A stretch of 64,000 nt of DNA from Candidatus Moraniibacteriota bacterium (GTDB lineage: Bacteria > Patescibacteriota > Minisyncoccia > Moranbacterales > UBA1568), in the NCBI GenBank assembly GCA_017983435.1, contig JAGOBM010000001.1, forward strand, positions 47,916 through 111,915, in the 5' to 3' direction. The notes under the pieces were generated by a model. That model worked only from the letters and a program-made list of their open reading frames with translations, was not told the DNA's origin and made no database searches. The position numbers and the translations under genes were made by a program. Positions 11,147-53,396 of this stretch are shown piece after piece (the first letter of the stretch is position 1; every line of letters starts with the position of its first letter).

Positions 11147-11219
11147 GGGCCCATAGCTCATTTGGTAGAGCACCTGCTTTGCACGCAGGGGGTGAGCGGT
11201 TCGAATCCGCTTGGGTCCA
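11147..11219 (+). tRNA. tRNA-Ala(TGC).
   Basis: Cloverleaf folds by hand; anticodon loop CTTTGCACG; G3:U70 alanine identity pair; no encoded CCA. Confidence 0.85.
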
Positions 11220-11296
11220 CCCTTGATTTTCTCGGATGCCTGGGGTACACTGGGCAACGTGGTGATCGAACCGGTTTTTTATTGTTGGAATTTCCC

Positions 11297-11370
11297 GGGC
11301 GATTAGCTCAGTTGGTTAGAGCGCGACACTGATAATGTCGAGGTCCCAAGTTCGAATCTTGGATCGCCCA
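11297..11370 (+). tRNA. tRNA-Ile(GAT).
   Basis: Cloverleaf; anticodon loop ACTGATAAT; acceptor stem GGGCGAT/ATCGCCC. Confidence 0.85.
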
Positions 11371-11395
11371 CACCGGCCATGTATGGCGGTATTAT

Positions 11396-11469
11396 AGCGG
11401 GGTAGAGCAGTCTGGCAGCTCGCTTGGCTCATAACCAAGAGGTCGGTGGTTCAAATCCACCCCCCGCAA
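11396..11469 (+). tRNA. tRNA-Met(CAT), possibly the initiator: A11:U24 pair and an unpaired 1-72 position.
   Basis: Cloverleaf; anticodon loop CTCATAA; D-stem GAGC/GCTC gives A11:U24. Confidence 0.65.
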
Positions 11470-11482
11470 CAAATGGAAAGAG

Positions 11483-11556
11483 GGCAGGGTAGCTCAGCCG
11501 GTTAGAGCACAGCACTCATAACGCTGAGGTCGTGGGTTCGATTCCCACCCCTGCTA
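11483..11556 (+). tRNA. Second CAT-anticodon tRNA, either elongator Met or tRNA-Ile2 (lysidine).
   Basis: Cloverleaf; anticodon loop CTCATAA; T-arm GTGGGTTCGATTCCCAC. Confidence 0.65.
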
Positions 11557-11580
11557 CACTTGAAAAAAGAACCAAGAACC

Positions 11581-11640
11581 AAGCTCCAATAACCAAGTAG
11601 CGTATTTCCTTGGTGATTGGATTTTGGTAATTGGAGCTCG
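11581..11640 (+). other. Stem-loop of about 60 nt between tRNAs (CAAGCTCCAATAACCAAG ... TTGGTAATTGGAGCTCG), possibly a processing or spacer structure.
   Basis: Near-perfect inverted repeat seen directly. Confidence 0.4.
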
Positions 11641-11652
11641 AATAGAGTCTAT

Positions 11653-11726
11653 GGGGGCGTAGCTCAGCTGGTTAGAGCGCCACACTGTCACTGTGGAGGT
11701 CGCGGGTCCGAATCCCGTCGCTCCCG
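11653..11726 (+). tRNA. tRNA-Asp(GTC).
   Basis: Cloverleaf; anticodon loop CTGTCAC; discriminator G73. Confidence 0.8.
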
Positions 11727-11735
11727 CCCATAGAA

Positions 11736-38512: not shown

Positions 38513-39106
38513 CTATTTCTCGTGCTTGATCGCGCGGATCTCCTGGAGGAGGATCTCGATCGCCGATTCGATCTTCTCAATGCGCTTCTGGTCCTCGGTG
38601 CGCTCGACAGCGTCTTCCTGGTCATCCCTCTCGATTTCTACGCCGAGCTCATCGACATCCTCAGATATGTCCTCCACATCCTCGCTGATCTCTTTCACGT
38701 CTTCCTGGATGGTATCGATATCCTTGGAAATCTCCTCCACATCCTCGCTGATCTCTTCCACATCTTCCTGGATGGTATCGATATCCTTGGAAATCTCTTC
38801 CACATCCTCAGATATGTCTTCCACGTCTTCGCTCACTTCCTCGATCTGCTTGGCGTGCTGATTGACCGTCATCTGGATGAAGAGCGAGAGATAGATCGCT
38901 TCGAGTGAGACGAGAGTCGTCAGGATAAGCATGATCTGGTCGAACGAGAACCCGAACAGCTGCAGCGTGAAGATGCCGACGAAGAAGCAAGTGTGCAGGA
39001 TGAGCGAGGTCGGCGATCCGAGATACTGTGGGGCAGCGAGCGCGAGGGATTCGACGCGTGAGGCCTTCGGTTCCGTGACTTCCGGCAATGGGAGCGGGGT
39101 TTCCAT
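38513..39106 (-). CDS. DUF1003-family membrane protein with a C-terminal acidic tandem-repeat coiled-coil.
   Basis: FDQIMLILTTLVSLEAIYLSLFIQMTVNQHAKQ matches the DUF1003 core; repeated EDVEEISKDIDTIQ units follow. Confidence 0.6.
   Translation of the reverse strand: METPLPLPEVTEPKASRVESLALAAPQYLGSPTSLILHTCFFVGIFTLQLFGFSFDQIMLILTTLVSLEAIYLSLFIQMTVNQHAKQIEEVSEDVEDISEDVEEISKDIDTIQEDVEEISEDVEEISKDIDTIQEDVKEISEDVEDISEDVDELGVEIERDDQEDAVERTEDQKRIEKIESAIEILLQEIRAIKHEK
38640..38850. repeat. Tandem DNA repeats of about 66 nt, three or more units, inside the DUF1003 gene.
   Basis: Near-identical blocks ATCTCCTCCACATCCTCGCTGATCTCTTCCACATCTTCCTGGATGGTATCGATATCCTTGGAA. Confidence 0.75.
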
Positions 39107-39464
39107 AGATGATTGATAGTGAATGCTGGTAATCGGGCTCCCCGAGAGGAGGACTTTCAAGCAAAAAGCCCTCAATGCGGAGAGGTGATTGAGTCCCGTA
39201 AAAATGAGTAACGGAAAAAATATTTCATTTTTCCCTGGCTTAGTCAGGTGGGTCTCAGTTAGGAATCCGAGGATTCCATCGCTTCTCGTTCTGAAGGCTT
39301 TTCACTGCCAGTATACTCTTCTTTGGCTGTCTGTGCTATCCTGGCGCGGAAAGCCCTTTGGATAAAGCAAAAAAAGTATGTCGGATATCATCGTGCATGA
39401 TCGGACGCAGATTACTCCTGTACCGGGCCTCTGATAGTCGGAAATTCTCATATCTCTCCACCCT

Positions 39465-40828: not shown

Positions 40829-40858
40829 AGGGCTTCCACCGGAAGCCCTTTTATTTTT
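40829..40858 (+). terminator. Intrinsic terminator just outside the island's left border.
   Basis: GGGCTTCCaccGGAAGCCC followed by TTTTATTTTT. Confidence 0.7.
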
Positions 40859-40921
40859 ACTCAAAATGGGGTGTAATGCGGCTTGTGGAGCGGGGTATCA
40901 GGTGATAGGATATACGTAACA

Positions 40922-40941
40922 AGTTACGTAACTGATTACGT
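40922..40941. repeat. Left 20-bp direct repeat AGTTACGTAACTGATTACGT, containing the palindrome GTTACGTAAC; an extra inverted arm ACGTAACaaGTTACGT lies just upstream.
   Basis: Identical 20-mer at 49651..49670. Confidence 0.85.
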
Positions 40942-40943
40942 CT

Positions 40944-41120
40944 ATGACCAAGAAAATAACGGGGGATAAGAATACCAGAAAACTGACCAAGCTCGGGGGA
41001 AAGAGTATCGGGCTGACGCTTCCCATTGATATGGTCCGCGAGCTCGGCTGGAGAGAGAAACAGAAAGTTACAGTGAAGAGAGTAAGAGGAGGAGTTCTCA
41101 TCAAAGATTGGAAAGCTTAA
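40944..41120 (+). CDS. AbrB/MazE/SpoVT-like small DNA-binding protein, 58 aa (below the ORF-track size cutoff).
   Basis: Manual translation MTKKITGDKNTRKLTKLGGKSIGLTLPIDMVRELGWREKQKVTVKRVRGGVLIKDWKA; swapped-hairpin-like pattern. Confidence 0.45.
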   Translation: MTKKITGDKNTRKLTKLGGKSIGLTLPIDMVRELGWREKQKVTVKRVRGGVLIKDWKA

Positions 41121-41179: not shown

Positions 41180-44100
41180 TTGGAAGAAATAGATTGTATG
41201 TCAGCAATAACAAACGTAGGGGCAAATACATTGTCATCTAATCTCAAAAGCATTCTTCCGAATTGTGATCGGGTAGATGCTCTTGTTGGTTATTTCTATT
41301 TTTCTGGATTCAAAGATCTTCATCATGAGCTCGAAGATAAGCAGATTCGGATTCTTGTCGGGATGGATATAGATAGGAAAATAATTGAGAAAGTGTCGAC
41401 ATTGAAGGATATTAATCTTGATTTCCATACGATCGAAACAAAAATTTCGTCTCGCTCAGGGGCGAAAGATGATTATATCGAAAACTTCTCAAAAGTTTTT
41501 AATGATACGGATTATTTTGATAATGAGGAGTCGCAAGTAGCCTTTGAAATATTTCTTGGGAAGATTCAGGATGGGAGTCTGCAGATTAAGAAGACTGCAC
41601 AAGCTAATCATTCTAAATTCTACATACTTCACAATAAACCGGAATTTTCCATGAATGGTATAACTCCGGGTATCGTTATTGAAGGTTCTAGTAATCTAAC
41701 CTTTTCTGGTTTGAAAGGACAAGGGGAGCATAATAGGATTTTGCAAGAAAAACATTATTATGATGATGATGTTCAGCGATTTGAAGAGTGCTGGAATGAT
41801 CCGGACAACATCATTATTACGGATTTGGACTCCTCAGAATCCTTTATCAAGGAGGTGAAGAGCAGAATCTGGCTTTATTCATTGCCGGATCCGCTTCTTA
41901 TGTACTACCGGGTGTTGAGCGAATACTTTTCCATCACGGAAGTCGAGGACATGAAGACCCCGAAGAATATAACCGGCGGGAAGTTTTCTGATCTTAAATA
42001 TCAGAAGGACGCGATCAATCTTGGTATTGACCGGATTAAGAAATTCGGCGGGGTGATAATTGCGGATGTTGTCGGACTCGGGAAAAGTATTGTGGCTTCC
42101 GCTATTGCTCATAACTTAGGCATGAAGACGCTTATCATTGCGCCACCACACCTTGAGAGCCAGTGGAAAGACTACATGGCAGAATTCGATTTCAAAGGTT
42201 TTGTGTATACGACTGGGAAAATCGAGGAGGCTCTCGAGAGACATGGGAGTGATGATGGAAAGTTATTGATTATTCTCGACGAAGCGCATAAGCACCGGAA
42301 CGAGGATACGGACAACTACAAAGTGCTCCATCGTCTCTGTGCTGGTCACTATGTGATGGCTCTTTCCGCGACTCCGTTCAATAATGATCCAAAAGATATC
42401 TATGCGCTCATAAAACTGTTCAGTACACCGGGACAGTCGACTATCCGGACCGTGGAGAATTTGAGCATGTCGTTCCATATGCTTTTCAAGCGATACAAGA
42501 CAGTGAGAAGGCAGCTCCGTAATACAGGAAAAGATGACAATGGCGAGGGGTCTACTATCAGAGTTGAACTTCATTCCATCGCTGATGAATTGCGTAGGAT
42601 GATAGAGCCGCTCATTATCCGGCGATCAAGATTGGATCTCGAGGAAATCGACGAGTACCGGAACGATCTGAAAGCGCAAGGAATTTCTTTCGCGAAGGTA
42701 CATGATCCAGAATTACTCGAGTACGAACTGGGAGATATGTTTGACCTGTATGTTGGGACACTCGAGAAAATCGCTCCGGAAGACAAGAGCACAAGTTTCA
42801 TCGGCGCGAGGTACAAGCCGGCTAGTTATATCCGGCAGGGGTCGGAGTTTATCAAGAAGCTTGTCGAGGGTGACGATGACGAGGATGGCGTATCTCCTGA
42901 AGAAAAACTCCATAGCATCAAACAGGCGCAGGTGAACATCACGAAGTTCATGCGAAGATTACTGGTGAGGCGCTTTGAAAGTTCAATCGGTGCGTTCAAA
43001 CTTTCACTGGGGAATATGATCACGTCTTCGGAAGTGATGCTGGATTGGTATGTGAATAGACATGAAGTTCCTATTTTCAAGAAGGGGGCGCTCCCGGATG
43101 TCGAAGATCTGAATGAGATGGACGATAAGGAACGGGAAGATCTTCTTTCAAAATTCGAGGATAAGGGACTCATCAGGATACCTGTTGCGGAACTTCAGCC
43201 GGAGTTTGAATCGCATTTGAGAAGCGATATAGTTCTGCTTAAAGAGATACAAGGGAAGTGGGCGCACAATTCTGATGATCCGAAATACGAATTCCTTAAG
43301 AAGAAATTGTCTGAAGCTATTTTTCAAGACAAGAAGCGGAAGATCATCATCTTTACGGAGTTTTCTGATACCGCCAATTACGTTTATCAAAAACTGAACG
43401 ATGATGGATTCAAGAGGGTATTCAAATATAGTTCGGAAGATTCCACTGATGAGAACAAGCGGATTATCCGGGCTAATTTTGATGCTGGGTTGGATGATGC
43501 GAAACAAACCGATGATTATGATGTCATTATCGCAACAGATGCGATTTCGGAAGGATTCAACCTGCACCGCGCCGGCATCGTCATCAACTATGATATTCCT
43601 TACAATCCGACGAGAGTGATCCAGCGTGTTGGTCGTATAAACCGCATCAACAAGAAGGTTTTTGACGAGTTGTATATATACAACTTTTTCCCAACTTTGA
43701 CCGGCGAGATGGAGACCCGGACGAAGGCGATCTCGACACTAAAGATGGATCTGATTCATACGCTTCTCGGGGAGGACACCAAGACATTGACATCCGATGA
43801 GGATTTGAAGAATTACTTCGCGAAGCAGTACAAGGAGGAAAATTCGAAAAGCGAGAAGCTCTCATGGGATGCTCCATACAGGAATACCTGGCTCTCCATA
43901 AAAGACGACCAGGATATAATGCGAAAAATCGCTGAAATTCCCCATCGATCAAGAATCGCAAGGAAAGCGAAAATTTCTGGTGTTGTGGCATTTGCCAAGA
44001 AGAGTGGAAACTACGTATTTGCGTTTGGTGAGAGTCCGGAGACTGTGCAGATTGTATCCCCGCAGATTGCTCTACCATTGTTCAATGAGGTCGCGGATTT

Positions 44101-44488
44101 AGAGCAACCTCTCCAGACGACTATCAACTTTGATCCAATTTATAAAATAGCCAAGGAACATATCTTTAAGGATAACACTCGATCGCCGGTTGATAGCGGA
44201 AGAAAACAGGACTCACTTAATAAAATTAAGATCCTTTCGGATAATTATCCTCAAGCCAAAGATCTTTGTATTGACCTGATTAGGGTTATTAAGGATCTTG
44301 ACGGTCTGCCGAACGGAGTGCTTAAGGAAATCGCAGAGCTAAAAATCGACAAGAACGATTTTGGAAAAGCGTTCCAGGAATTGAAGGAGCTCGTGCCACA
44401 CAAGTATCTCGAAAGCATATTTAGGACAGCGGATCGAGCCAATGACACTGGGAAGCTTATTGTCTTATCCGAAGAGTTGGTCGTATGA
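41180..44488 (+). CDS. Fusion of an N-terminal PLD-family (HKD) nuclease domain with an SNF2-family helicase, 1102 aa.
   Basis: HSKFYILHN...GSSNLT matches the HxK...GSxN PLD motif; SNF2 motifs ADVVGLGKS (I), ILDEAHKHRN (II), LSATPFNN (III), and helicase C-terminal motifs DAISEGFNLH and QRVGRINR. Confidence 0.85.
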   Translation: MEEIDCMSAITNVGANTLSSNLKSILPNCDRVDALVGYFYFSGFKDLHHELEDKQIRILVGMDIDRKIIEKVSTLKDINLDFHTIETKISSRSGAKDDYIENFSKVFNDTDYFDNEESQVAFEIFLGKIQDGSLQIKKTAQANHSKFYILHNKPEFSMNGITPGIVIEGSSNLTFSGLKGQGEHNRILQEKHYYDDDVQRFEECWNDPDNIIITDLDSSESFIKEVKSRIWLYSLPDPLLMYYRVLSEYFSITEVEDMKTPKNITGGKFSDLKYQKDAINLGIDRIKKFGGVIIADVVGLGKSIVASAIAHNLGMKTLIIAPPHLESQWKDYMAEFDFKGFVYTTGKIEEALERHGSDDGKLLIILDEAHKHRNEDTDNYKVLHRLCAGHYVMALSATPFNNDPKDIYALIKLFSTPGQSTIRTVENLSMSFHMLFKRYKTVRRQLRNTGKDDNGEGSTIRVELHSIADELRRMIEPLIIRRSRLDLEEIDEYRNDLKAQGISFAKVHDPELLEYELGDMFDLYVGTLEKIAPEDKSTSFIGARYKPASYIRQGSEFIKKLVEGDDDEDGVSPEEKLHSIKQAQVNITKFMRRLLVRRFESSIGAFKLSLGNMITSSEVMLDWYVNRHEVPIFKKGALPDVEDLNEMDDKEREDLLSKFEDKGLIRIPVAELQPEFESHLRSDIVLLKEIQGKWAHNSDDPKYEFLKKKLSEAIFQDKKRKIIIFTEFSDTANYVYQKLNDDGFKRVFKYSSEDSTDENKRIIRANFDAGLDDAKQTDDYDVIIATDAISEGFNLHRAGIVINYDIPYNPTRVIQRVGRINRINKKVFDELYIYNFFPTLTGEMETRTKAISTLKMDLIHTLLGEDTKTLTSDEDLKNYFAKQYKEENSKSEKLSWDAPYRNTWLSIKDDQDIMRKIAEIPHRSRIARKAKISGVVAFAKKSGNYVFAFGESPETVQIVSPQIALPLFNEVADLEQPLQTTINFDPIYKIAKEHIFKDNTRSPVDSGRKQDSLNKIKILSDNYPQAKDLCIDLIRVIKDLDGLPNGVLKEIAELKIDKNDFGKAFQELKELVPHKYLESIFRTADRANDTGKLIVLSEELVV

Positions 44489-47400
44489 TGAAATTCAACG
44501 AGAAATATCAACCCGATGATTTTCTGCAATTTTTGCAGGAGTTTTTACCGGAAGATTTTTCAGAAAAAGAGGAAGATATTGTCATCAACAAGGAACGATA
44601 TAAGGTGATAACCGAAGCTACGGTTCTTGGCTACTGTGGCTCGCTCGATCTTCATGTTTTGGAGATGGTCCATACCAGAGAAAAGGATCCTCGGGTTTCT
44701 ATTACTACAGATGCGTTCAAGATTCTTGCTGATAATTGGATTCATCGTGCGCTGGTCGTTTTTAGGAACAAGGATACCGAGAATTATCGGTTTTCATATT
44801 TGACTATCACTCTTGATCTAAATGATAAGAGTAAAGCAGTTAAAAAGTATTCAAATGCACGGAGATATTCTTTCTATCTAGGAGCGAATGCAAAGGTGCG
44901 GACGCCGGAGCAGCAGTTGATCAAGAAAGGGAGAATTAAGGATGTCGACGATCTGCTCACCCGGTTCTCGGTGGAGGTGGTCAATAAGCAATTCTATCTT
45001 GAGGTGGCCAAATTTTTTGATGAGCTTGTATCGGGTGAGGGTAAAAATTTGTCGCTTCCGAGCGTATCGCAGGAAAACGTAAATGTTAGGAAGAGCTTTG
45101 CTGTCCGGTTGATCGGCCGCCTGATGTTCTGCTGGTTTTTGAAACAGAAGAAATCTGAATCAGGCCAGCTTATTCCCGATGAATTGCTTTCTTCTGATGT
45201 CGCTAGGAAGACAAGTGGTTATTATCACGGCATTCTTGAGCCGCTCTTTTTTGAGGTGCTGAACACGAGTATTAACACTCGTGGCATCAGGAGCGAGTTG
45301 TTCGATAGGGTGCCGTATTTGAATGGTGGACTTTTTAATCCTCAGCCGGAGGATTACTACGAATTAGACGGAAGTACATTTTTTTCGAAGTATATCAATA
45401 CGCTTTCGATAAGTGATCAGTGGTTCGTGGATTTCTTCGAACTCCTCGAACTGTATAACTTCACCATCGATGAAAACACGGTGTTCGATCAGGAGCTTTC
45501 CGTGGATCCGGAGATGCTCGGGAGGATCTTCGAGAATTTGCTTGCCGAGATAAATCCGGAAACCGGGAGCAGCGAGCGGAAACGGACTGGGAGTTTTTAC
45601 ACCCCACGGCAGATCGTGGAGTATATGGTCGACCAGTCGCTCATAGAATACTTCAAGACCAAGACGAGCATCGACGAAGCGAAACTCGCCGCGCTTGTGA
45701 GTTACGATCTTAATGATGATGCTGGCTATCCATTGTCGGATGATGAGAAACAGAAAGTGGTGATGGCGATTGAGACCCTGAAACTTCTTGATCCGGCCTG
45801 TGGATCTGGCGCATACCCGATTGGGGCACTCCAGAAGATCGTTTATATCCTCCAGATCGTCGATCCGGACTGCAAACTCTGGCTTAATGAGAAGCTGAAA
45901 GACGTCCCAGATCTGTACAAACAGAAGATCATTAATGAAGTTCACTCAAACCCATTTGATTACACGCGCAAGCTCGATGTGATTAAAAATTCCATTTTCG
46001 GAGTGGATATCCAGCCGATTGCTGTGGACGTATCTCGTTTGCGGTGTTTTCTTACACTTGTTGTGGAATCGGAGATTGACGATATAAAGCCAAATCGAGG
46101 CATTGAACCACTGCCAAACCTTGATTTCAAATTCGTATGCGCCAATACGTTGATTGGTCTCCCGAAGGCGGAGTCGAGCGGATTGTTTGATGACCATTCT
46201 GGAATTTCAGAACTTTCAAAGATCATGTCAGAGTATTTCTCCTGTAATAGTCAGAGAAAAAATGAAATTCGTCTTAAGTTTCTTCATGTTCAAAAAGATA
46301 TCCTCGAGAAAACTATTTCTGCCTTTGGAAAAAATACTGGAGAGCTCACGCTGAGGCTCGCCACATGGAATCCGTTCAGTAATAATTCTAATAGCTGGTT
46401 TGATCCGGAGTGGATGTTTGGTATTACAGAAAAGTTCGATATTGTAATCGGAAATCCTCCTTATAATGTTAAATTATCTGGCGAGGAGAGAAAATTTTAT
46501 AAAGGAAATTATATAGGGGTAAAGTCTGGAAGACAGGATACCGCTGCAATTTTTGTTGAGGCAGCTTCGCGGTTTAGCAATAACGAATCTATTGTATGTT
46601 TTATCATCCCATACCGGCTGTTCTCTCGAAAAAGAAATCATGGAGCTTTCCAAGAGTATGTTCTGAAAAATTCTTCAATAAATGAGATAGTTTATCTAGG
46701 AAAGGATGCTGGGTTTGACACTGCAAAAGATGAATTTATGATCGTGGTGTTTTCGAAATATGAACACGATAATTCTATAAGAATTTGCAGTAAGCCCGAT
46801 TTCAAGAATCTAAATAGACTAGATTTTTCGCGTGTCGCCCAGTGTATATTCGAGAAAAGTAATGAAATTAATATAAATGTTTCTAAGTTTGACACGCGAA
46901 TTTTATCAAAGATAGAAAAAGGGAATCCCATTTTATCAGACATATGTTATGTCAAAGATGGAATAGTCCCGTATATTCGGGAGAAAATGATAAGCCAAAG
47001 AAAAATTGATGATCGTTATGTAAAGTTCGCTGGTGTTTCTGGAACGTATAAGCTTGATAGGTACGCATTTACCGCAGATGAGATGTATTTATGCTATGAC
47101 ATATTAGAAGCAAAAAAGTATATATCGGATATTAACGAATTAAGAAAAGTGCAGTTAAGGGATAAGGCAATCTTCTTGCAAGATGAGAAAATCATTACTT
47201 CTCAGAATAGCGCGAAATTAAAAGGATCGATTGATACTGAACAGTATTTCGTATCTAATTCGATACACAGTACATACCTCAAAGAAGAATGTAAGGACAA
47301 GTATAAACTATCCTTTATTTTAGGTTGTATCAATTCTTCCTTGCTAAATTATTACTATAACTCGAAGCGGTTGAAGGGAGTGGATTTGCACCCACAGATA

Positions 47401-47610
47401 TTAATTACAACATTGAAACTATTGCCGATTCCAGCGATCATTGGGGAGCGAGTTGTGGTGGTTAAAGAAGTTATTTCTTTAGTTGAGGATGTGATGAGAA
47501 TGAAAAAGTCTGGTACAAATACTGAGGATTTAGAAAACAAGATTGATGAGCTTGTTATGGATCTTTACGGACTCAATGATGAAGAAAAGGAAGTTGTAAG
47601 AAATTCGTAG
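44485..47610 (+). CDS. Gamma-class N6-adenine DNA methyltransferase of the Eco57I/MmeI/PglX type, with an N-terminal domain of about 350 aa and a C-terminal TRD-like region; 1041 aa. Translationally coupled to the upstream gene by an ATGA overlap.
   Basis: GSFYTPRQIVEYMV (motif X), LLDPACGSGAYP (motif I), VIGNPPYNV (motif IV). Confidence 0.85.
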   Translation: MMKFNEKYQPDDFLQFLQEFLPEDFSEKEEDIVINKERYKVITEATVLGYCGSLDLHVLEMVHTREKDPRVSITTDAFKILADNWIHRALVVFRNKDTENYRFSYLTITLDLNDKSKAVKKYSNARRYSFYLGANAKVRTPEQQLIKKGRIKDVDDLLTRFSVEVVNKQFYLEVAKFFDELVSGEGKNLSLPSVSQENVNVRKSFAVRLIGRLMFCWFLKQKKSESGQLIPDELLSSDVARKTSGYYHGILEPLFFEVLNTSINTRGIRSELFDRVPYLNGGLFNPQPEDYYELDGSTFFSKYINTLSISDQWFVDFFELLELYNFTIDENTVFDQELSVDPEMLGRIFENLLAEINPETGSSERKRTGSFYTPRQIVEYMVDQSLIEYFKTKTSIDEAKLAALVSYDLNDDAGYPLSDDEKQKVVMAIETLKLLDPACGSGAYPIGALQKIVYILQIVDPDCKLWLNEKLKDVPDLYKQKIINEVHSNPFDYTRKLDVIKNSIFGVDIQPIAVDVSRLRCFLTLVVESEIDDIKPNRGIEPLPNLDFKFVCANTLIGLPKAESSGLFDDHSGISELSKIMSEYFSCNSQRKNEIRLKFLHVQKDILEKTISAFGKNTGELTLRLATWNPFSNNSNSWFDPEWMFGITEKFDIVIGNPPYNVKLSGEERKFYKGNYIGVKSGRQDTAAIFVEAASRFSNNESIVCFIIPYRLFSRKRNHGAFQEYVLKNSSINEIVYLGKDAGFDTAKDEFMIVVFSKYEHDNSIRICSKPDFKNLNRLDFSRVAQCIFEKSNEININVSKFDTRILSKIEKGNPILSDICYVKDGIVPYIREKMISQRKIDDRYVKFAGVSGTYKLDRYAFTADEMYLCYDILEAKKYISDINELRKVQLRDKAIFLQDEKIITSQNSAKLKGSIDTEQYFVSNSIHSTYLKEECKDKYKLSFILGCINSSLLNYYYNSKRLKGVDLHPQILITTLKLLPIPAIIGERVVVVKEVISLVEDVMRMKKSGTNTEDLENKIDELVMDLYGLNDEEKEVVRNS

Positions 47611-47628: not shown

Positions 47629-48501
47629 ATGGAAAGTCAGCTTTTTTCAGAAAAATCTTTGGCGGATCATTTATTTGATATCTGTTATGATGGTCCATCT
47701 TTTGATGGTGCCATGGAAATTTCTTTGTTAAAAAATGAAATAGCTGGTCTTGATAATGCTTTACGTATAGCAGCGCAAGTTTTAGCAAAACATAAAAAAA
47801 TCGACTTTCGTTCTGGTGATGTAGAGATTTATATTGAGGCTTTTGAGAGGGGTTCTTTTAAGAAAAAAGTTAAAGTTGTTTTAAAATCTTTACAGGATTT
47901 AAACCAGTATCAAGGTGCGATAGCTCTGGGGGCGTTAGTTATTAGTGTGATGACATTCGTAAAACAACAGGAGACTTTAGATATAGACCATATACCACCG
48001 GAAATAATGGCTCAGTTTAAGACTCAAGTGGAGTATGATTTGTTACAGAATAGAGAATTTCTTAAGTCTGTTTCTGATATTGTTGCCCCATTGAATCAAA
48101 GCGGTGATCATTTACATATAGCCGTCCCGAAAAATTCTGAAACCGATATAGATTACTTGGATAAAGAAAAATTTATTAAATTAGCACTACCCAGCGTGGT
48201 TGAAGGGGTTGATGGCGATAAACACGAGATAATCGTAGGGCGGATTAATCGCGTTGATCTCGATGCTACTATTCGCCATATTGGATTCAAGGTAAAAGGA
48301 GAGGGGTCTTCGATTCCGGCAACGCTTTCAACTCAGGTAAAATCTTCTGTTAGTATGAATGACTTACTGGGGAAGTGGGTGGAAATGGGTGCTTTAACTA
48401 CGTATAAAGGCGATATCAGAGAGCATATCGAGATTGAGGATATAAAAATAGTAGAACAACAAAAACTCCCCATTGATTTTAATAATGAAGGAATCGAGTG
48501 A
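47629..48501 (+). CDS. Hypothetical protein, 290 aa, island cargo.
   Basis: ORF with AT-rich codon usage matching the island. Confidence 0.5.
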   Translation: MESQLFSEKSLADHLFDICYDGPSFDGAMEISLLKNEIAGLDNALRIAAQVLAKHKKIDFRSGDVEIYIEAFERGSFKKKVKVVLKSLQDLNQYQGAIALGALVISVMTFVKQQETLDIDHIPPEIMAQFKTQVEYDLLQNREFLKSVSDIVAPLNQSGDHLHIAVPKNSETDIDYLDKEKFIKLALPSVVEGVDGDKHEIIVGRINRVDLDATIRHIGFKVKGEGSSIPATLSTQVKSSVSMNDLLGKWVEMGALTTYKGDIREHIEIEDIKIVEQQKLPIDFNNEGIE

Positions 48502-48546: not shown

Positions 48547-49368
48547 ATGCGTTTTTCTCAAAGAATAGGTAAATCTTCAATAAGGACAGAAATTCAAGTT
48601 GATTCGATGGATGATCGACTAAGGAACCGACTTTTTAATGTTGTGAAAGACTATATAGATCAACAATTGGCCTTCTGGGATGCGGGACGATATATTAAGC
48701 ATGATTTTATTGTTCAATATTGTGATTGTTTTGGTAAGTTACATAAGAGTGATGACTACGAAGATTTTTTTAAAGAATTATTCCAAAAAATATTTGTTAA
48801 TGAAGATATTTTTTTCTTTTATGATTTTATAGAATTTGTAGTTCGGCGGGGCGCACATAGTAAAGAAATTCTTATTCATGAATTCAATCGTATTTTTGAA
48901 GAAGAAAAATCAGCGTACAAACTTGATATTAGTGGGTCTTTAATACAAATTACAGATGATATTGAGCTTGAAGAGATTGATTTGGCAATAGCGAGTGCGA
49001 GCGAGTATAAGAGTGTACAAGAGCATTTGGAGAAGGCTAGGGGATTTTTCTCTAGCCGTGAAAATCCTGATTACAAGAAATCTATCGAAGAATCTGTTCA
49101 TGCTATAGAGGCAATGGCTAAAATAGTAGTAAAAGATAAAAATGCTATTTTGAGTGATGCGTTGAAGAAGATAAATGATTTGCACCCAGCTTTGAATCAG
49201 AGTTTGCAAAAGTTGTATGCCTTTGCCGGGGATGCAAGCGGTATTCGTCATAGTAACAAAGAGCCTGTTGATTCTGAAAAAGAACATTCTGTAGGAATTG
49301 GTGAGGCAAGAATGATTCTTGTTTTGAGTCACTCAATGATTAATTATTTGAAAGAGAAGTTTTTGTAA
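48547..49368 (+). CDS. Hypothetical protein, 273 aa, possibly AbiJ-N-terminal-like plus a HEPN-like C-terminus (ARMILVLSH, Rx6H).
   Basis: N-terminus MRFSQRIGKSSIR and the C-terminal Rx6H motif; weak manual similarity only. Confidence 0.45.
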   Translation: MRFSQRIGKSSIRTEIQVDSMDDRLRNRLFNVVKDYIDQQLAFWDAGRYIKHDFIVQYCDCFGKLHKSDDYEDFFKELFQKIFVNEDIFFFYDFIEFVVRRGAHSKEILIHEFNRIFEEEKSAYKLDISGSLIQITDDIELEEIDLAIASASEYKSVQEHLEKARGFFSSRENPDYKKSIEESVHAIEAMAKIVVKDKNAILSDALKKINDLHPALNQSLQKLYAFAGDASGIRHSNKEPVDSEKEHSVGIGEARMILVLSHSMINYLKEKFL

Positions 49369-49652
49369 TGAAAAAGAATGATAAGAGAGAATTGAATCGA
49401 GGATTTGGGCTTACTATTATAGGGGCCTTGCTTGGATTTTTCATAAGCGTGACAGCATCGGGAGTGTTTGAAATTTCAATGCATGGCCGGTCTGGTCGGG
49501 CAGGCTGGATTACTCTTTGTTATGGTGTAGTCTCTTTGTTTCTGATTTCGTTATTTTCGTACCGTATAGAAAATTTAGATCGGGTAAAAAACATGTCCGA
49601 TGGAGAAATTTTTAAAGATTATTTGAAAACCGTGCTTCATTTTAAGAAATAG
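49368..49652 (+). CDS. Small two-TM membrane protein, 94 aa; its ATG overlaps the upstream TAA.
   Basis: TAATG overlap; two hydrophobic helices. Confidence 0.4.
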   Translation: MKKNDKRELNRGFGLTIIGALLGFFISVTASGVFEISMHGRSGRAGWITLCYGVVSLFLISLFSYRIENLDRVKNMSDGEIFKDYLKTVLHFKK

Positions 49653-49670
49653 TTACGTAACTGATTACGT
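49651..49670. repeat. Right 20-bp direct repeat AGTTACGTAACTGATTACGT.
   Basis: Identical to 40922..40941. Confidence 0.85.
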
Positions 49671-49678
49671 AAACCGGT

Positions 49679-50074
49679 ATGCAAGCCTGCGAGACGGTCG
49701 GGGAATATATGGAGGGGCTGCCTGAGGGAGTGCGGGCGGAGTTCACTCTGCTCTGGCAGACAGTCCGGGAGCTGGTACCAGGGGGCGAGGAAGTGATCCG
49801 CTACGGGATGCCGACTATGCGGGTGGTGGGGAAGAATCTCGTCCACTGCGCCGTCATGAAAGAGCATTTCGGATTCTATCCGACCCCTTCGGGCGTGAAG
49901 GCATTTGAGAGCGAGCTTCTTGGGAAATATCGGTATTCCGAGGGTGCTATCCAGTTTCCGTTCGGCGAGCGGCTGCCGCTCCCGCTTGTCCGCAAGATCG
50001 TGCGCTTCCGCCTCTCCGAAGAATCTTCCCTCCCAGAATCCCTCGAAATCCCACCCTCCAAAAAAGTAACATAA
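49679..50074 (+). CDS. DUF1801/YdhG-like protein.
   Basis: Pattern HCAVMKEHFGFYPTPSGVKAFESELL; 131 aa. Confidence 0.55.
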   Translation: MQACETVGEYMEGLPEGVRAEFTLLWQTVRELVPGGEEVIRYGMPTMRVVGKNLVHCAVMKEHFGFYPTPSGVKAFESELLGKYRYSEGAIQFPFGERLPLPLVRKIVRFRLSEESSLPESLEIPPSKKVT

Positions 50075-50075
50075 T

Positions 50076-50097
50076 TATACGGCCGTGGAATTATGTT
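50076..50097. promoter_or_regulatory. Palindromic element TAATTATACGGCCGTGGAATTATG upstream of the PaaX-like gene; a related copy lies downstream of it.
   Basis: The arm CGTGGAATTATG is shared with 50759..50783. Confidence 0.4.
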
Positions 50098-50154
50098 ACA
50101 ATATAAAAAAGAGAAGATGTATTTTTCGGATACGATATAAGGTGCAGAAGATGT

Positions 50155-50760
50155 ATGTATAAGTTCGGCCCGGTTCAACAGAAGCTCCTCCTCCTGCTTG
50201 TCGCTGGAATCGGGTTGGGATTGGAGACTTCCTCTATCCGCTATTATCAGAAGCTCGGAGCGATAGTGAGGGAATGGAAACGTATCGATCAGCGAAGTAT
50301 CAAGCGTTCCGTAAGGCGCTTGTGCAGTGAGAAGCTGGTCAGGGAAATCATCCAGCCTGATGGATCATTCAAGCTCGTGCTTACGGAGGAGGGGAAGAGG
50401 CAGGCTCGCATCCAATTTCTTTTCGACAATTCGATCCGTTTCAAGAATTCGAGGCGATGGGATAAGAAATGGCGTATCGTCATGTTTGATATCCCGGAAA
50501 AGGAGAGAGGATTCCGCGATATTCTGCGCGAGCATCTGCGTGAATTGAATTTTTATAAGCTGCAGCAGAGTGTCTTCGCTTCCCCGAATCCGTGCGAGAA
50601 GCAGATAGCGGAACTGGTATCGTTGTATAGAGCGGAATCGTTGGTGCGTGTAATGACAGTCGATTGGATCGATAACGAGAAGAAGCTCAGGGATTATTTT
50701 TTTGGCCAGAAATCTTCCCGGAAAATTACTCAGAAAACCGAATATGAAACGGTATCATAA
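50155..50760 (+). CDS. PaaX-like transcriptional regulator: N-terminal wHTH plus a C-terminal PaaX_C-like domain.
   Basis: WDKKWRIVMFDIPEKERGFRDILREHLRELNFYKLQQSVFASP resembles the PaaX C-terminal signature. Confidence 0.45.
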   Translation: MYKFGPVQQKLLLLLVAGIGLGLETSSIRYYQKLGAIVREWKRIDQRSIKRSVRRLCSEKLVREIIQPDGSFKLVLTEEGKRQARIQFLFDNSIRFKNSRRWDKKWRIVMFDIPEKERGFRDILREHLRELNFYKLQQSVFASPNPCEKQIAELVSLYRAESLVRVMTVDWIDNEKKLRDYFFGQKSSRKITQKTEYETVS

Positions 50761-50783
50761 TTCCACGGTCGTGGAATTATGAT
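50759..50783. promoter_or_regulatory. Perfect palindrome AATTCCACGGTCGTGGAATT (20 bp) overlapping the stop of the PaaX-like gene.
   Basis: Seen directly; related to the upstream copy. Confidence 0.4.
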
Positions 50784-50986
50784 ACTTTTAAAAATGCGGG
50801 ATTATTCTTAATGGGGACAGATATGGAAAAATCCTACCAGCAGTGCCAGTCGTGCAGCAGATCCCGAAGAGCTGGTAAGATAGGCTGATCCGGAGCGGTA
50901 AGTAGATCGAATCAGGGGCTTGACTTCCGGGTGTATACTGGAAGAGTCAATGAGGGGGGGTGTAATTCGTAACGCAGAACATGCTT

Positions 50987-51873: not shown

Positions 51874-52722
51874 ATGGAGAAAGAAATCATATCGCGTCTG
51901 CATAAGCACTTCGAAGAATACGCCCATGACCGGGATGGGGTGGAGTTCTGGTATGCTCGGGAGCTCCAGGATTTGCTTGGATATGATGAGTGGCGGAATT
52001 TTGAAGGGGTTATTGATAAGGCGAAGATAGCCTGTAGAATGGCTCAACAGAAAGATTCTGATCATTTTGTTGACGCCAACAAAACGATACCGATGCCGAA
52101 AGGCGCCAGCAAGGAAGTACTGGATATCATGCTGACGCGCTACGCCTGCTATCTCATCGCCCAGAATGGCGATCCGCGCAAGGATGAGATCGCTTTTGCA
52201 ATGACGTATTTTGCCATCCAGACCCGCAAGCAGGAGGTGGTCGAACAGCGGCTGGCCGAGTGGGAGCGGCTGTACGCGCGGGAGAAGCTGACACTTTCGG
52301 AAAAGGAACTCTCCGGCGTGCTGTACGAGCGCGGTGTCGACAGCCATGGATTCGCGCGTATCCGAAGTCGTGGGGATCAGGCTCTATTCGGTGGGAGCAC
52401 GACGCAGGAGATGAAGTTCAAGCTGCGGGTGCCATCGACTCGCGCCTTGGCGGATTTCCTCCCTGCAGTGACGATCAAGGCCAAGGATCTGGCTACGGAG
52501 ATCACCAATCACAATATCAAGCAGGACGGGACGCTCCGAGGGGAGCCGATCATCGCAAGTGAGCACGTGAAGAACAATCGGAATATGCGCGAGATGCTCG
52601 TCAAAAGCGGTATCTATCCGGAAGCGCTCCCGGCAGAAGAGGATATCCAGAAGCTGGGGCGTCGGCTGAAATCCGAAGGCAAGAAGCTGTCGAAACAGGT
52701 GAAGGTATTGAAGAAAAAATAA
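51874..52722 (+). CDS. dinD: DNA-damage-inducible protein D.
   Basis: Strong similarity to the remembered E. coli DinD sequence: EFWYARELQDLLGYDEWRNFEGV and MLTRYACYLIAQNGDP. Confidence 0.8.
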   Translation: MEKEIISRLHKHFEEYAHDRDGVEFWYARELQDLLGYDEWRNFEGVIDKAKIACRMAQQKDSDHFVDANKTIPMPKGASKEVLDIMLTRYACYLIAQNGDPRKDEIAFAMTYFAIQTRKQEVVEQRLAEWERLYAREKLTLSEKELSGVLYERGVDSHGFARIRSRGDQALFGGSTTQEMKFKLRVPSTRALADFLPAVTIKAKDLATEITNHNIKQDGTLRGEPIIASEHVKNNRNMREMLVKSGIYPEALPAEEDIQKLGRRLKSEGKKLSKQVKVLKKK

Positions 52723-52745
52723 TTTGTCGGGTTAAGCAGAAGAAT

Positions 52746-53396
52746 ATGGAAATTCTGACACAGAAGCAGAAGATCGTGCTGCAAGCTATCAAGCAGTTCC
52801 TCGCCGAGCATGGCAAGATGCCGACGGTGCGGGAGATCAAAGAAGAGAGCTCACGGCTCGGGTTGCAGCTCAAGAGCTTGCGCAGCTTCTTCATCTATCT
52901 CAATGCGCTTGAGGAGAAGGGGTATATCGAGCGGACCTCCGAAGATCGGGGGATACTGCTCAAGGGGGTGACGAGCGAGAATTTCGTCCAAGTGCCGGTT
53001 TTCGGATCGGCGAGCGCCGGCGCGGCGGCGATGTTTGCGGATCAGTATGTCGAGGGGTATCTCCGGGTCTCCAAGCGTCTGGTGAAAGATCGGAATATCT
53101 TCGCCGTGCAAGTCAACGGCACGTCGATGAACAAAGCAGTGGTCAATGGCAAGACCATCGAGAGCGGCGATTTCGTCCTGGTGGATGGCAGCTCTCGGGA
53201 ATACAAGAACAACGATCGGGTGCTGGTGGTGATCGACGGCTTGGCGACGGTGAAGACCTATCGGACCGTGGACGGCAAGACGATCGCGCTCGTACCGGAA
53301 TCGACCGACAAGAAGCATCAGCCGATCTTCCTCTCGGACGATGACAATTTCGTCATCAACGGTCTCGTGGTGAATGTACTCAAGCTGCCGAAATAA
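52746..53396 (+). CDS. lexA: LexA repressor (S24 peptidase).
   Basis: N-terminal wHTH, cleavage-site region VPVFGSASAGAA, and Ser/Lys dyad NGTSM...K. Confidence 0.85.
   Translation: MEILTQKQKIVLQAIKQFLAEHGKMPTVREIKEESSRLGLQLKSLRSFFIYLNALEEKGYIERTSEDRGILLKGVTSENFVQVPVFGSASAGAAAMFADQYVEGYLRVSKRLVKDRNIFAVQVNGTSMNKAVVNGKTIESGDFVLVDGSSREYKNNDRVLVVIDGLATVKTYRTVDGKTIALVPESTDKKHQPIFLSDDDNFVINGLVVNVLKLPK

Follow-up and report, generated by a model that had tools for sequence, protein, structure and literature searches.

A two-gene module of a PLD-Snf2 motor nuclease and a PglX/MmeI-like methylase as a candidate minimal restriction-modification system in Patescibacteria

The stretch of DNA analysed here, hereafter the window, comprises 64,000 nucleotides (nt) of the genome of a Candidatus Moraniibacteriota bacterium (assembly GCA_017983435.1, contig JAGOBM010000001.1, positions 47,916 to 111,915). 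It carries two adjacent open reading frames (ORFs), ORF1 and ORF2, which probably make up a two-subunit, ATP-dependent restriction-modification (R-M) system, in which, judging by their sequences, ORF2 would methylate the DNA and give specificity and ORF1 would translocate and cut. The best reading of the pair is that of a minimal two-gene, loader-free R-M system, formed by a PLD nuclease fused to a Swi2/Snf2 motor and by a PglX/MmeI-like methylase, which is abundant in bacteria of the Candidate Phyla Radiation (CPR, Patescibacteria) and is also found in gut Bacteroidales. The parts of this module are known and the pair has been seen before, but it has not been named, delimited or studied.

The two genes

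The two genes are arranged as follows, with lengths in amino acids (aa).

41198..44488, + strand: ORF1, putative restriction (R) subunit, with a PLD(HKD) nuclease, a Swi2/Snf2 ATPase and a C-terminal domain in one protein; 1096 aa (Pfam, Foldseek, profile search)
44485..47610, + strand: ORF2, putative modification and specificity (M/S) subunit, a gamma-class N6-adenine methyltransferase of PglX/MmeI-like build that includes a recognition domain; 1041 aa

The longest reading frame of ORF1 in the ORF list runs from a TTG at 41180 to 44488 and encodes 1102 aa. The ATG at 41198, which gives 1096 aa, is nonetheless the likely start, since it is favoured by the homologs and by the NCBI protein, which begins with MSAITN. 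This protein, MBP5993348.1 ('helicase [Candidatus Moranbacteria bacterium]'), is identical to ORF1 and comes from a 187-kb contig of a Moranbacteria metagenome-assembled genome (MAG). The stop codon of ORF1 and the start codon of ORF2 share the four nucleotides ATGA (GTC GTA TGA / ATG ATG AAA). The coordinates of both genes, their sizes (1102 and 1041 aa) and the ATGA overlap, as given in the original prediction, a model's reading of this DNA from its letters and ORF translations, agree with the ORF list, and the motifs that it quoted (HSKFYILHN, GSSNLT, DEAH, FYTP, LDPACGSG and NPPY) are all present in the translations, as are GLGKS, SATP and QRVGRINR.

A PLD nuclease fused to a Swi2/Snf2 motor

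ORF1 is divided into the following parts.

41372..41794, + strand: PLD/HKD nuclease domain, aa 59-199 (Pfam PLDc_2, 28.8 bits, cutoff 27)
41609-41734, + strand: PLD catalytic block H138-K140...S164-S165-N166...E177-x-N179, invariant in the alignment
41990..43687, + strand: Swi2/Snf2 ATPase core, aa ~265-830 (motif I GLGKS, motif II DEAH, motif III SATP, motif VI QRVGRINR)
43895..44485, + strand: C-terminal domain, aa ~900-1096 (about 200 aa), a beta-sheet module followed by helices in the AlphaFold model, conserved across the family

In a full-length alignment of 20 family members, with identities down to 28%, the PLD residues H138, K140, S164, S165, N166, E177 and N179 are invariant in all 20 sequences, as are the helicase residues K296 (Walker A), D361/E362/H364 (DEAH), T392/P393 (motif III) and Q809/R810/G812/R813 (motif VI). 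The Pfam families SNF2-rel_dom (44.1 bits, cutoff 24.9) and Helicase_C (63.1 bits) are also recognised in ORF1. The predicted assignment of the motor to the Swi2/Snf2 ATPases holds, since Swi2/Snf2 proteins head both the profile search of the PDB, with RapA, CHD4, Fft3, SsoRad54 and DDM1 as top matches, and the Foldseek search with the AlphaFold model of ORF1, with RapA, ISWI, Chd1, Mot1 and SMARCAD1. The description of the first gene as a single-HKD PLD domain joined to an SNF2 ATPase is therefore borne out by Pfam, by the invariant residues and by the profile and Foldseek matches, including the PLD catalytic residues, on whose presence in a proper alignment the original prediction had made itself depend.

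The HKD motif is found in a single copy per ORF1 chain. One HKD motif, as in Nuc and BfiI, constitutes half of a PLD active site. With half a site per chain, as in Nuc, BfiI and the structure of MtsD, the nuclease would have to act as a dimer. The PLD domain would moreover be the only credible nuclease of the module, since the nuclease domain that ORF2 carries looks dead, as discussed below. The C-terminal domain of ORF1 possibly contacts the partner or the DNA; this domain of ~200 aa, together with a restriction-endonuclease-like N-terminal domain and a helical spacer in ORF2, is a feature that the original prediction had not described.

A methylase with its own recognition domain

The partner protein appears to consist of five parts.

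44485..44889, + strand: N-terminal restriction-endonuclease-like domain, aa 1-135, with a predicted alpha-beta-beta-beta-alpha-beta fold (predicted local distance difference test, pLDDT, 77-91)
44902..45474, + strand: helical spacer, aa ~140-330, with weak, sub-threshold Pfam matches to MmeI_hel and DUF7814
45502..46764, + strand: methyltransferase domain, aa ~340-760, with FYTP (motif X) at aa 371-374, LDPACGSG (motif I) at 435-442 and NPPY (motif IV) at 657-660
46765..47484, + strand: hypervariable target-recognition domain of the TaqI_C type, aa ~761-1000 (Pfam TaqI_C at aa 870-982; column conservation)
47485..47607, + strand: C-terminal helical tail, aa 1001-1041, conserved, with helices of pLDDT >90

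With regard to families, Pfam recognises Eco57I (92.4 bits), N6_Mtase (46 bits) and TaqI_C (38.4 bits) in ORF2, and MmeI_hel at 18.4 bits, under its cutoff of 27. Column counts over 88 distinct partner proteins show motifs X, I and IV to be at least 90% conserved, and their order, X-I-IV followed by a C-terminal recognition domain, is that of the gamma class. The profile search led to CamA (1e-44) and BseCI (1e-36), with a recognition domain that matches those of CamA, BseCI and PglX. In Foldseek, the structure model of ORF2 (pLDDT 77) aligned over its full length with BrxX/PglX (~1040 columns) and MmeI (~980 columns), while its methylase and recognition domain resemble those of CamA, M.BseCI and M.TaqI. 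Pfam, the motif order and the variable region thus agree with the earlier assignment of this gene to the gamma-class adenine methyltransferases with a C-terminal recognition domain.

The best sequence matches of ORF2 are the REase_MTase_IIG models of PADLOC, with E-values of 1e-70 (PDLC03601, aa 161-566), 2e-48 and 5e-46. In its N-terminal domain, the E-x-K expected on strand 3 is degenerate: E60 is found in 72 of the 88 partners and Lys62 in only 13, with a valine at position 62 in the protein of the window, and strand 2 has no conserved acidic residue. Conversely, R102, S104, R127 and S129 of the same domain are invariant. None of the 120 listed homologs contains a Pfam nuclease family. In this clade, ORF2 therefore has the appearance of a descendant of a Type IIG enzyme with an inactive nuclease of its own.

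These features also bear on another explanation, according to which ORF2 is a self-sufficient Type IIG/IIL enzyme, similar to Cj0031 or MmeI, that cuts by its own N-terminal nuclease, with ORF1 as an accessory or independent protein, such as a back-up effector or a processor of cut DNA. The REase_MTase_IIG matches, the fold predicted for the N-terminal domain, the full-length structural alignment that reaches MmeI and the E-x-K at 60-62 in 13 partners would all suit such an enzyme. This explanation is nevertheless unlikely in view of the valine in the window protein, the rarity of the lysine and the missing acidic residue on the preceding strand; furthermore, the IIG profiles start at aa 88-161 and do not cover the nuclease part, the homologs lack nuclease families, and both the strict 4-nt coupling to ORF1 and the co-evolution with it would be unexpected for an optional accessory.

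A conserved gene pair

The family of ORF1 includes more than 5000 clusters at 90% identity (E <= 1e-10) and, at 50% identity, at least 858 representatives (E <= 1e-30); about 100 or more of the latter align over almost their full length, with identities down to ~32%. Its close relatives (67-90% identity) are overwhelmingly Patescibacteria, namely Moranbacteria, Paceibacterota, Saccharibacteria, Nomurabacteria, Kaiserbacteria and Falkowbacteria. The gene neighbourhood was surveyed in 147 loci gathered from species-representative genomes, metagenomes and IMG/VR, 123 of which extend at least 1.5 kb 3' of the ORF1 homolog. An ORF2 homolog lies directly 3' of the ORF1 homolog and on the same strand in 121 of these 123 loci, at ORF1 identities down to 30%, and the 4-nt overlap is kept in most of them. 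Clustering of all ORFs within 5 kb in the 121 loci revealed no third conserved gene. A survey of this kind had been proposed in the original prediction, and the co-occurrence of the PLD-SNF2 homologs with an ORF2-type methylase, together with the degenerate N-terminal triad of ORF2, upholds its view of a self-contained two-gene module, with methylation and specificity in the partner and the only credible nuclease in the motor gene.

In nine loci (L049, L060, L069, L072, L082, L085, L090, L101 and L107) the two genes are separated by 0.6-2.3 kb, mostly with an extra ORF. Some of these intervening ORFs are presumably DUF1016/YhcG-, DUF3800-, AlbA/Schlafen- or Bro-N-like. DUF1016, DUF3800, AlbA and Bro proteins are the usual passengers of Type I R-M operons. 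Cultured bacteria also carry the pair: on plasmid NZ_OY725763.1 of Parabacteroides distasonis, an 'SNF2-related protein' of 43% identity to ORF1 precedes an 'N-6 DNA methylase', and TIR and AAA genes lie close by. The module is widespread, especially common in the CPR and also present in gut Bacteroidales, and its two translationally coupled genes are inherited together and co-evolve in thousands of genomes.

More distant relatives of the helicase, at 25-30% identity, are encoded on plasmids of Thermales and Acinetobacter, where the gene order differs; they were left out of the family count and mark the limit of the two-gene family. Full-length relatives of 30% identity are encoded on the plasmids pMESIL02 of Allomeiothermus silvanus (L149) and pTHEOS02 of Thermus oshimai (L150), in the order 'DNA methyltransferase' (~745-790 aa), hypothetical protein (~330-410 aa) and helicase, possibly a related three-gene system with the methylase and specificity parts split. 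On plasmid pBDT201-3 of Acinetobacter indicus (L151), a helicase-related protein of 25% identity is followed, in a four-gene cassette, by a DUF4391 protein, a site-specific DNA methyltransferase and a DEAD/DEAH helicase, and similar matches are found on plasmids of Enterococcus and Latilactobacillus. The L151 cassette is a different multi-gene R-M-like system that has only the Snf2 part in common with the pair.

Exchange of the recognition domain

Mean column conservation across the 88 ORF2 partners is 0.44-0.79 for aa 1-560, falls to 0.04-0.28 for aa 760-1000 and returns to 0.41 for the last 40 residues. Pairwise identities of ORF1 correlate closely with those of the ORF2 core (Spearman 0.80) and hardly with those of the recognition domain (Spearman 0.18), and many pairs of systems have ORF1 proteins at least 85% identical with recognition domains below 35%. 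For instance, loci L097 and L098 share 99% identity in ORF1 and 95% in the ORF2 core, compared with 29% in the recognition domain. Across this pair, the set L003, L014 and L037 and the pair L013 and L025, identities are 95-99% for ORF1, 81-95% for the methylase core and 12-30% for the recognition domain, which indicates a recent exchange of the recognition domain within otherwise identical cassettes. This pattern of conservation and uncoupling is the classic one of recognition-domain exchange in R-M systems. It also matches what has been described for an apparent homolog in Bacteroides ovatus, where a Cj0031-like gene paired with a PLD+SNF helicase gene undergoes programmed inversions (PMC9881135).

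Mobility

Among the genes that recur beside the cassette, a large serine recombinase was counted in 31 loci, a terminase-like protein in 18, and a ParB-N6/N4 methylase and a helix-turn-helix (HTH) protein in 15 each; they belong to mobile elements and prophages and cluster in the CPR clade. In L001, L002/L117, L118 and other CPR loci, the cassette often adjoins a terminase-like gene, FtsK/SpoIIIE, a ParB-N6/N4 methylase and large serine recombinases, of which there are one or two.

The serine recombinase, terminase-like and ParB-methylase genes are of mobile or prophage type and adjoin about half of the CPR-clade loci, and several of the carrier contigs are present in IMG/VR. The cassette appears to move among Patescibacteria on prophage-like or integrative elements, and ORF1 identities of 70-85% across CPR classes imply a recent horizontal spread. 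These same observations (the mobile-type neighbours, the viral contigs of IMG/VR and the spread across classes), along with the programmed inversions of the Bacteroides homolog, could be taken to mean that the module chiefly serves the element that carries it, through addiction, superinfection exclusion or phase-variable epigenetic regulation, and not the antiviral defence of the host. Such a role seems improbable: the 8.7-kb block that holds the pair in the window has no recombinase or phage gene, and its neighbour there is an AbiJ-like defence candidate (PDC-S32). Moreover, the question concerns the beneficiary and not the mechanism, and the proposal is compatible with a two-subunit R-M system.

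Comparison with known systems

The two proteins were compared with the curated models of NCBIfam, PADLOC v2 and Pfam. Among the NCBIfam models, ORF1 scores 138.3 bits with DISARM_DrmD (cutoff 610), 77.7 with DrmD_b (950) and 108 with phospholipD_antiphage (NF042964; cutoff 1100), which we take to correspond to MtsD, and ORF2 scores 63 bits with the BREX-1 PglX model (cutoff 500) and 32 and 29 bits with other PglX models (cutoffs 900 and 400). In PADLOC, further matches are remote and partial: HmaA (92 bits, 6e-27), PLD_Helicase (64 bits, 1.5e-18) and DrmMI (37.6 bits, aa 361-523 only). A search of PDB sequences with the single proteins returned domain-level matches only. The family, its distant members included, is captured by neither PADLOC v2 nor NCBIfam. 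Whether the distant members join a named PADLOC family was also considered and rejected, their best match being one of 188 bits to C3a139 'HKD+Snf2', a candidate type III CRISPR accessory family.

One close resemblance in domain content is to the four-gene MANTIS system (Gao_RL/BR type 2). Its effector, like ORF1, joins an N-terminal HKD/PLD domain to an SF2/Swi2-Snf2-type ATPase, where SF2 denotes helicase superfamily 2; its specificity, as proposed for ORF2, is set by a separate N6-adenine methyltransferase that includes the recognition domain; and some loci have a small repressor gene upstream. In MtsD, one PLD site is built by a dimer, and MANTIS methylates only one strand of its sites and prefers inverted pairs of them. 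However, MANTIS needs a DUF499 AAA+ ATPase (MtsA) and a DUF3780 protein (MtsB) to load and activate its methylase, and neither DUF499 nor DUF3780 was found in the window, judging by ORF sizes and by Pfam scans of the flanking small ORFs, or as a recurrent family in the 121 related loci. ORF2 is furthermore nearer to the Type IIG enzymes than to the PglX-type methylases, and the sequence relation of the pair to the MANTIS-type models is remote.

Class 1 DISARM likewise places an SNF2 helicase gene beside an Eco57I/PglX-like N6-adenine methylase and includes a PLD protein, and its DrmD gives the best curated match of ORF1. Its PLD protein (DrmC) is separate, whereas the PLD domain of the pair is fused to the SNF2 protein, and no DrmA (YprA-like helicase), DrmB (DUF1998) or separate DrmC was found around the pair in the window or as a recurrent gene in the 121 loci. 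At the scores given above, ORF1 does not appear to be a DrmD equivalog, nor ORF2 a DrmMI equivalog.

The pair could also be read as a remnant or sub-module of one of these two systems, drmD-drmMI of Class 1 DISARM or mtsC-mtsD of BR type 2/MANTIS, which would need DrmABC or the DUF499 ATPase and DUF3780 and would be inactive or work only in trans. The best curated matches of ORF1, to DISARM DrmD (3e-40) and then to phospholipD_antiphage (5e-31), point in this direction, as do the weak matches to HmaA and DrmMI/PglX and a domain set that equals DrmD plus DrmC and DrmMI, or MtsD and MtsC. Nevertheless, the scores fall far under the cutoffs (138 vs 610, 108 vs 1100 and 63 vs 500), no ORF of DUF499 size exists in the window, where only TopA, NrdD, ORF1 and ORF2 exceed 700 aa, and the 121 loci show no recurrent additional gene family beside the pair. 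In addition, purifying selection acts on the catalytic residues in 858 or more clusters at 50% identity, which speaks against decay, and it is very unlikely that the pair is such a remnant.

Among the R-M systems with a motor, Type ISP enzymes (LlaGI, LlaBIII) combine the same four activities, namely a nuclease, a double-stranded-DNA-translocating SF2 ATPase, a gamma-class N6-adenine methylase and a single recognition domain. They hemimethylate asymmetric sites and cleave in a collision-dependent manner, as is proposed for the pair too. Each of these enzymes, however, is one polypeptide and cuts with a PD-(D/E)xK nuclease of the Mrr type, in contrast to the two proteins described here, whose PLD domain would have to pair. 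The full-length layout of ORF2, with an N-terminal domain, a helical spacer, an Eco57I-type methylase, a TaqI_C-type domain and C-terminal helices, is that of the Type IIG/IIL enzymes (MmeI, Cj0031) and of PglX/BrxX of BREX, with which it also shares the diversification of the recognition domain and the programmed inversions. In ORF2, however, the nuclease triad of Type IIG is not conserved, and ORF2 was never found without the upstream motor-nuclease gene in the surveyed loci. No PglZ- or BrxC-like ORF is present in the window, which sets the pair apart from BREX types 1-6.

The classical multi-subunit systems differ more. Type III systems have a beta-class Mod with an internal recognition domain followed by Res, an SF2 helicase that ends in a PD-(D/E)xK nuclease, whereas here the order is reversed, the methylase is of the gamma class and has its recognition domain at the C-terminus, and a PLD at the N-terminus of the motor protein serves as nuclease; Pfam ResIII matches ORF1 at aa 338-394 only (30.9 bits), with no stretch passing alone. 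Type I systems have separate HsdS, HsdM and HsdR, the latter with a PD-(D/E)xK nuclease, unlike the pair, in which the recognition domain is fused to the methylase. No HsdS-like ORF was found in the Pfam scan of the window or in the 121 neighbourhoods, and the PADLOC MTase_I match covers only aa 341-384 of ORF2. SauUSI (Type IV), CglI and NgoAVII also employ a PLD domain and a helicase-like ATPase for restriction and form the PLD site by dimerisation. SauUSI, however, is a single protein that targets modified DNA through its own recognition domain and has no methylase partner, and in CglI and NgoAVII the PLD resides on a B3-domain R protein, while the ATPase (DEAD-Z1 or another) is a protein of its own and the methylase is of the C5 type. 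Neither the 50 best Foldseek matches of ORF1 nor its 60 best profile matches, all of them Swi2/Snf2 or other SF2 proteins, included SauUSI.

By the defining features of these systems, the pair is not Class 1 DISARM, BREX, MANTIS/BR type 2 or a Type I, III, ISP or IIG system. The original prediction had listed DrmA/DrmB, BrxC/PglZ, HsdS and PD-(D/E)xK Res/HsdR as missing, and their absence was confirmed in the window and in the 121 related loci of the 123. Its statement that the pair matches no canonical system stands insofar as no curated model claims either protein and the PADLOC matches are partial or weak; it was too strong in that an HKD-Snf2 protein with an N6-methylase is the effector and modifier core of BR type 2/MANTIS.

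A similar division applies to the suggestion that the system is possibly undescribed, which is right in the sense that it is unnamed and undelimited. The fusion of an HKD nuclease with an SF2/Snf2 helicase is a recognised restriction-effector theme, and HKD-SNF2 fusions in R-M contexts have been noted by Aravind's group. The same pair was, moreover, listed in 2023 for Bacteroides ovatus (CP083813.1 and CP044495.1), as a 'PLD + SNF helicase CDS', that is, coding sequence, immediately 5' of a Cj0031-like Type IIG CDS (Nucleic Acids Res 2023, PMC9881135). Judged by this description, the two-gene arrangement appears to be the same as in the window, but the study treats the locus only as a context of programmed inversion, and a name, a family definition, a survey and a mechanism are absent from it. 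Searches of the literature for this combination of domains and for compound names of the fusion brought up no specific description.

Proposed mechanism

A working model for the pair can be drawn from the Type ISP and Type III enzymes and from MANTIS. ORF2 would bind a short asymmetric site and methylate one adenine, a hemimethylation such as that of MmeI, Type ISP, BREX and MANTIS, which would serve as the mark of self. At an unmethylated site, ORF2 would recruit or license ORF1; the contact between the two would probably involve, as a conjecture, the degenerate N-terminal domain and/or the C-terminal tail of ORF2 and the C-terminal domain of ORF1. The Snf2 motor of ORF1 would then translocate on double-stranded DNA, and two ORF1 protomers would build one PLD site, either as a constitutive dimer or by the convergence of two motor complexes. 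Since one HKD motif is a half site, which is also the case in Nuc, BfiI, SauUSI and the MtsD dimer, two ORF1 protomers would be needed for cutting, and it is proposed that this need makes cleavage dependent on at least two unmodified sites and leaves hemimethylated daughter DNA protected. The finer details of site geometry in this model are held with less confidence than the overall reading. In function, the pair would come close to a Type ISP enzyme whose activities are shared out between two proteins and whose Mrr nuclease is replaced by a PLD, and equally to the MtsC/MtsD half of MANTIS without its MtsA/MtsB loader.

Several points weigh against this reading. Methylation, cleavage and phage protection are inferred from sequence for the whole family. 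The MANTIS methylase cannot load on DNA without its AAA+ ATPase, and the ability of ORF2 to work without a loader is an assumption by analogy, made because ORF2 is closer to the autonomous Type IIG enzymes, as reflected by its PADLOC match of 1e-70. DISARM systems of Class 1 and Class 2 can defend the cell without their PLD protein DrmC, so the presence of a PLD domain does not by itself identify the effector. The E-x-K that 13 of the 88 partners retain in the N-terminal domain means that some family members could still cut via ORF2. Finally, both structure models are only moderate, with pLDDT values of 77 for ORF2 and 70 for ORF1 and predicted template modelling (pTM) scores of 0.45 and 0.54.

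A more far-reaching proposal, which may be true but falls just short of being probable, is that the pair represents a distinct, uncharacterised class of ATP-dependent R-M systems. In it, a Type IIG-derived methylase with a dead nuclease would license a Snf2-driven PLD in trans and without a loader, two converging motors would complete one PLD site, and the system would be a major form of motor-driven restriction in the CPR/Patescibacteria, which are mostly without CRISPR, spread on phage-like elements.

The mechanism of the methylation-based defences that use a motor (BREX, DISARM and MANTIS) is still poorly understood, and MANTIS restriction has so far not been reconstituted in vitro. A version that naturally consists of two proteins would offer the simplest setting for studying how a methylase of the PglX/MmeI type passes an unmodified site to a motor nuclease, whether the loader ATPase is dispensable and how a half-site PLD on a translocase assembles to cut. 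Since PADLOC v2 and NCBIfam miss the family, its share in censuses of defence systems is probably too low, especially for CPR bacteria and gut Bacteroidales. The swappable, modular recognition domain also makes the ORF2 methylase a candidate for the engineering of specificity.

The genomic block around the pair

ORF1 and ORF2 lie inside a drop in guanine-cytosine (GC) content, from ~55% around it to 43-35% at roughly 40-50 kb of the window. The features at its edges are the following.

40922..40941, no strand assigned: direct repeat AGTTACGTAACTGATTACGT, left copy, exact 20 nt, within the palindrome-rich 40910-40945 and immediately 5' of the MazE-like ORF
40944..41120, + strand: MazE/AbrB (SpoVT)-type DNA-binding ORF of 58 aa (Pfam MazE_antitoxin 1.8e-6, 28.2 bits, cutoff 24.7), 78 nt upstream of ORF1
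49651..49670, no strand assigned: direct repeat AGTTACGTAACTGATTACGT, right copy, 8729 nt from the left copy, the two copies precisely enclosing the low-GC block

The likeness of the AGTTACGTAACTGATTACGT copies ends at the 20 nt, and palindromic TTACGTAA half-sites are found inside them. They lie 2-8 nt 5' of the start codons of the MazE-like ORF (40944) and of a DUF1801 ORF (49679), and could be either an att-like duplication that followed an insertion or a common operator. No integrase, recombinase or phage gene was detected within the 8.7-kb block by family scans, and a megablast of a 10-kb block against phage, plasmid and E. coli collections gave no match. The view that the block is an acquired island, already put forward in the original prediction, is plausible given the low GC and the flanking 20-nt repeats, and the block has the look of a defence island of small size. 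Ahead of it, at 40829-40849, lies a strong hairpin of the terminator type; the promoter and terminator scan was otherwise uninformative.

The MazE-like ORF may encode a controller or regulator, comparable to MtsR of MANTIS or to the HTH gene 5' of the Parabacteroides homolog. Its membership of the module is uncertain, since the other loci have no conserved copy, and a tblastn search of the 147 loci gave zero matches. Directly 3' of ORF2, in the part of lowest GC (~35%), lies a 290-aa ORF (47629-48501, + strand) with only weak matches to NCBIfam LAPAL_fam (32.7 bits, cutoff 60) and phrog_3243 (3.5e-6). It is followed by the second defence-type gene of the block, an AbiJ_NTD4 protein (48547-49368, + strand; Pfam 3.5e-26) that matches the PADLOC single-gene defence candidate PDC-S32 at 3e-68, and by a 94-aa ORF (49368-49652) that overlaps the stop of the AbiJ-like gene by 1 nt and has no match in family scans. 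None of these three ORFs travels with the ORF1-ORF2 pair in the related loci; the separate DUF1801 ORF, of 131 aa, was found again in two of them.

Other features of the window

The window is chromosomal DNA of a CPR bacterium, with TopA, DprA, a DEAD helicase, MacB/FtsX, HlyD, a sigma factor, NrdD and PhoH among the genes that flank the block. A large phage genome had been suspected from the tRNA cluster, NrdD, PhoH and a Dda-like helicase, and was ruled out by TopA, DprA, MacB/FtsX, HlyD and the sigma factor and by the Moranbacteria MAG protein. The tRNA cluster comprises five genes (Ala-TGC, Ile-GAT, Met, Met and Asp) in ~600 nt at 11147-11730 (+ strand).

Just beyond the low-GC block there are phage-type genes, a Bro-N protein (phrog_8036, 4e-80) followed by a LexA/CI-like S24 repressor, at 51874-53396 (+ strand). 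Two inverted repeats of 38 nt (50062-50099 and 50752-50789), 87% complementary and each palindromic in itself, flank an ORF with a PaaX_M/Cas2-like domain (50155-50760, + strand; Pfam 4e-22). On the other side of the block, a coiled-coil ORF (38513-39175, - strand) contains 63-nt and 21-nt tandem repeats at 38651-38860, in five in-register copies with 60-100% identity to the reference copy.

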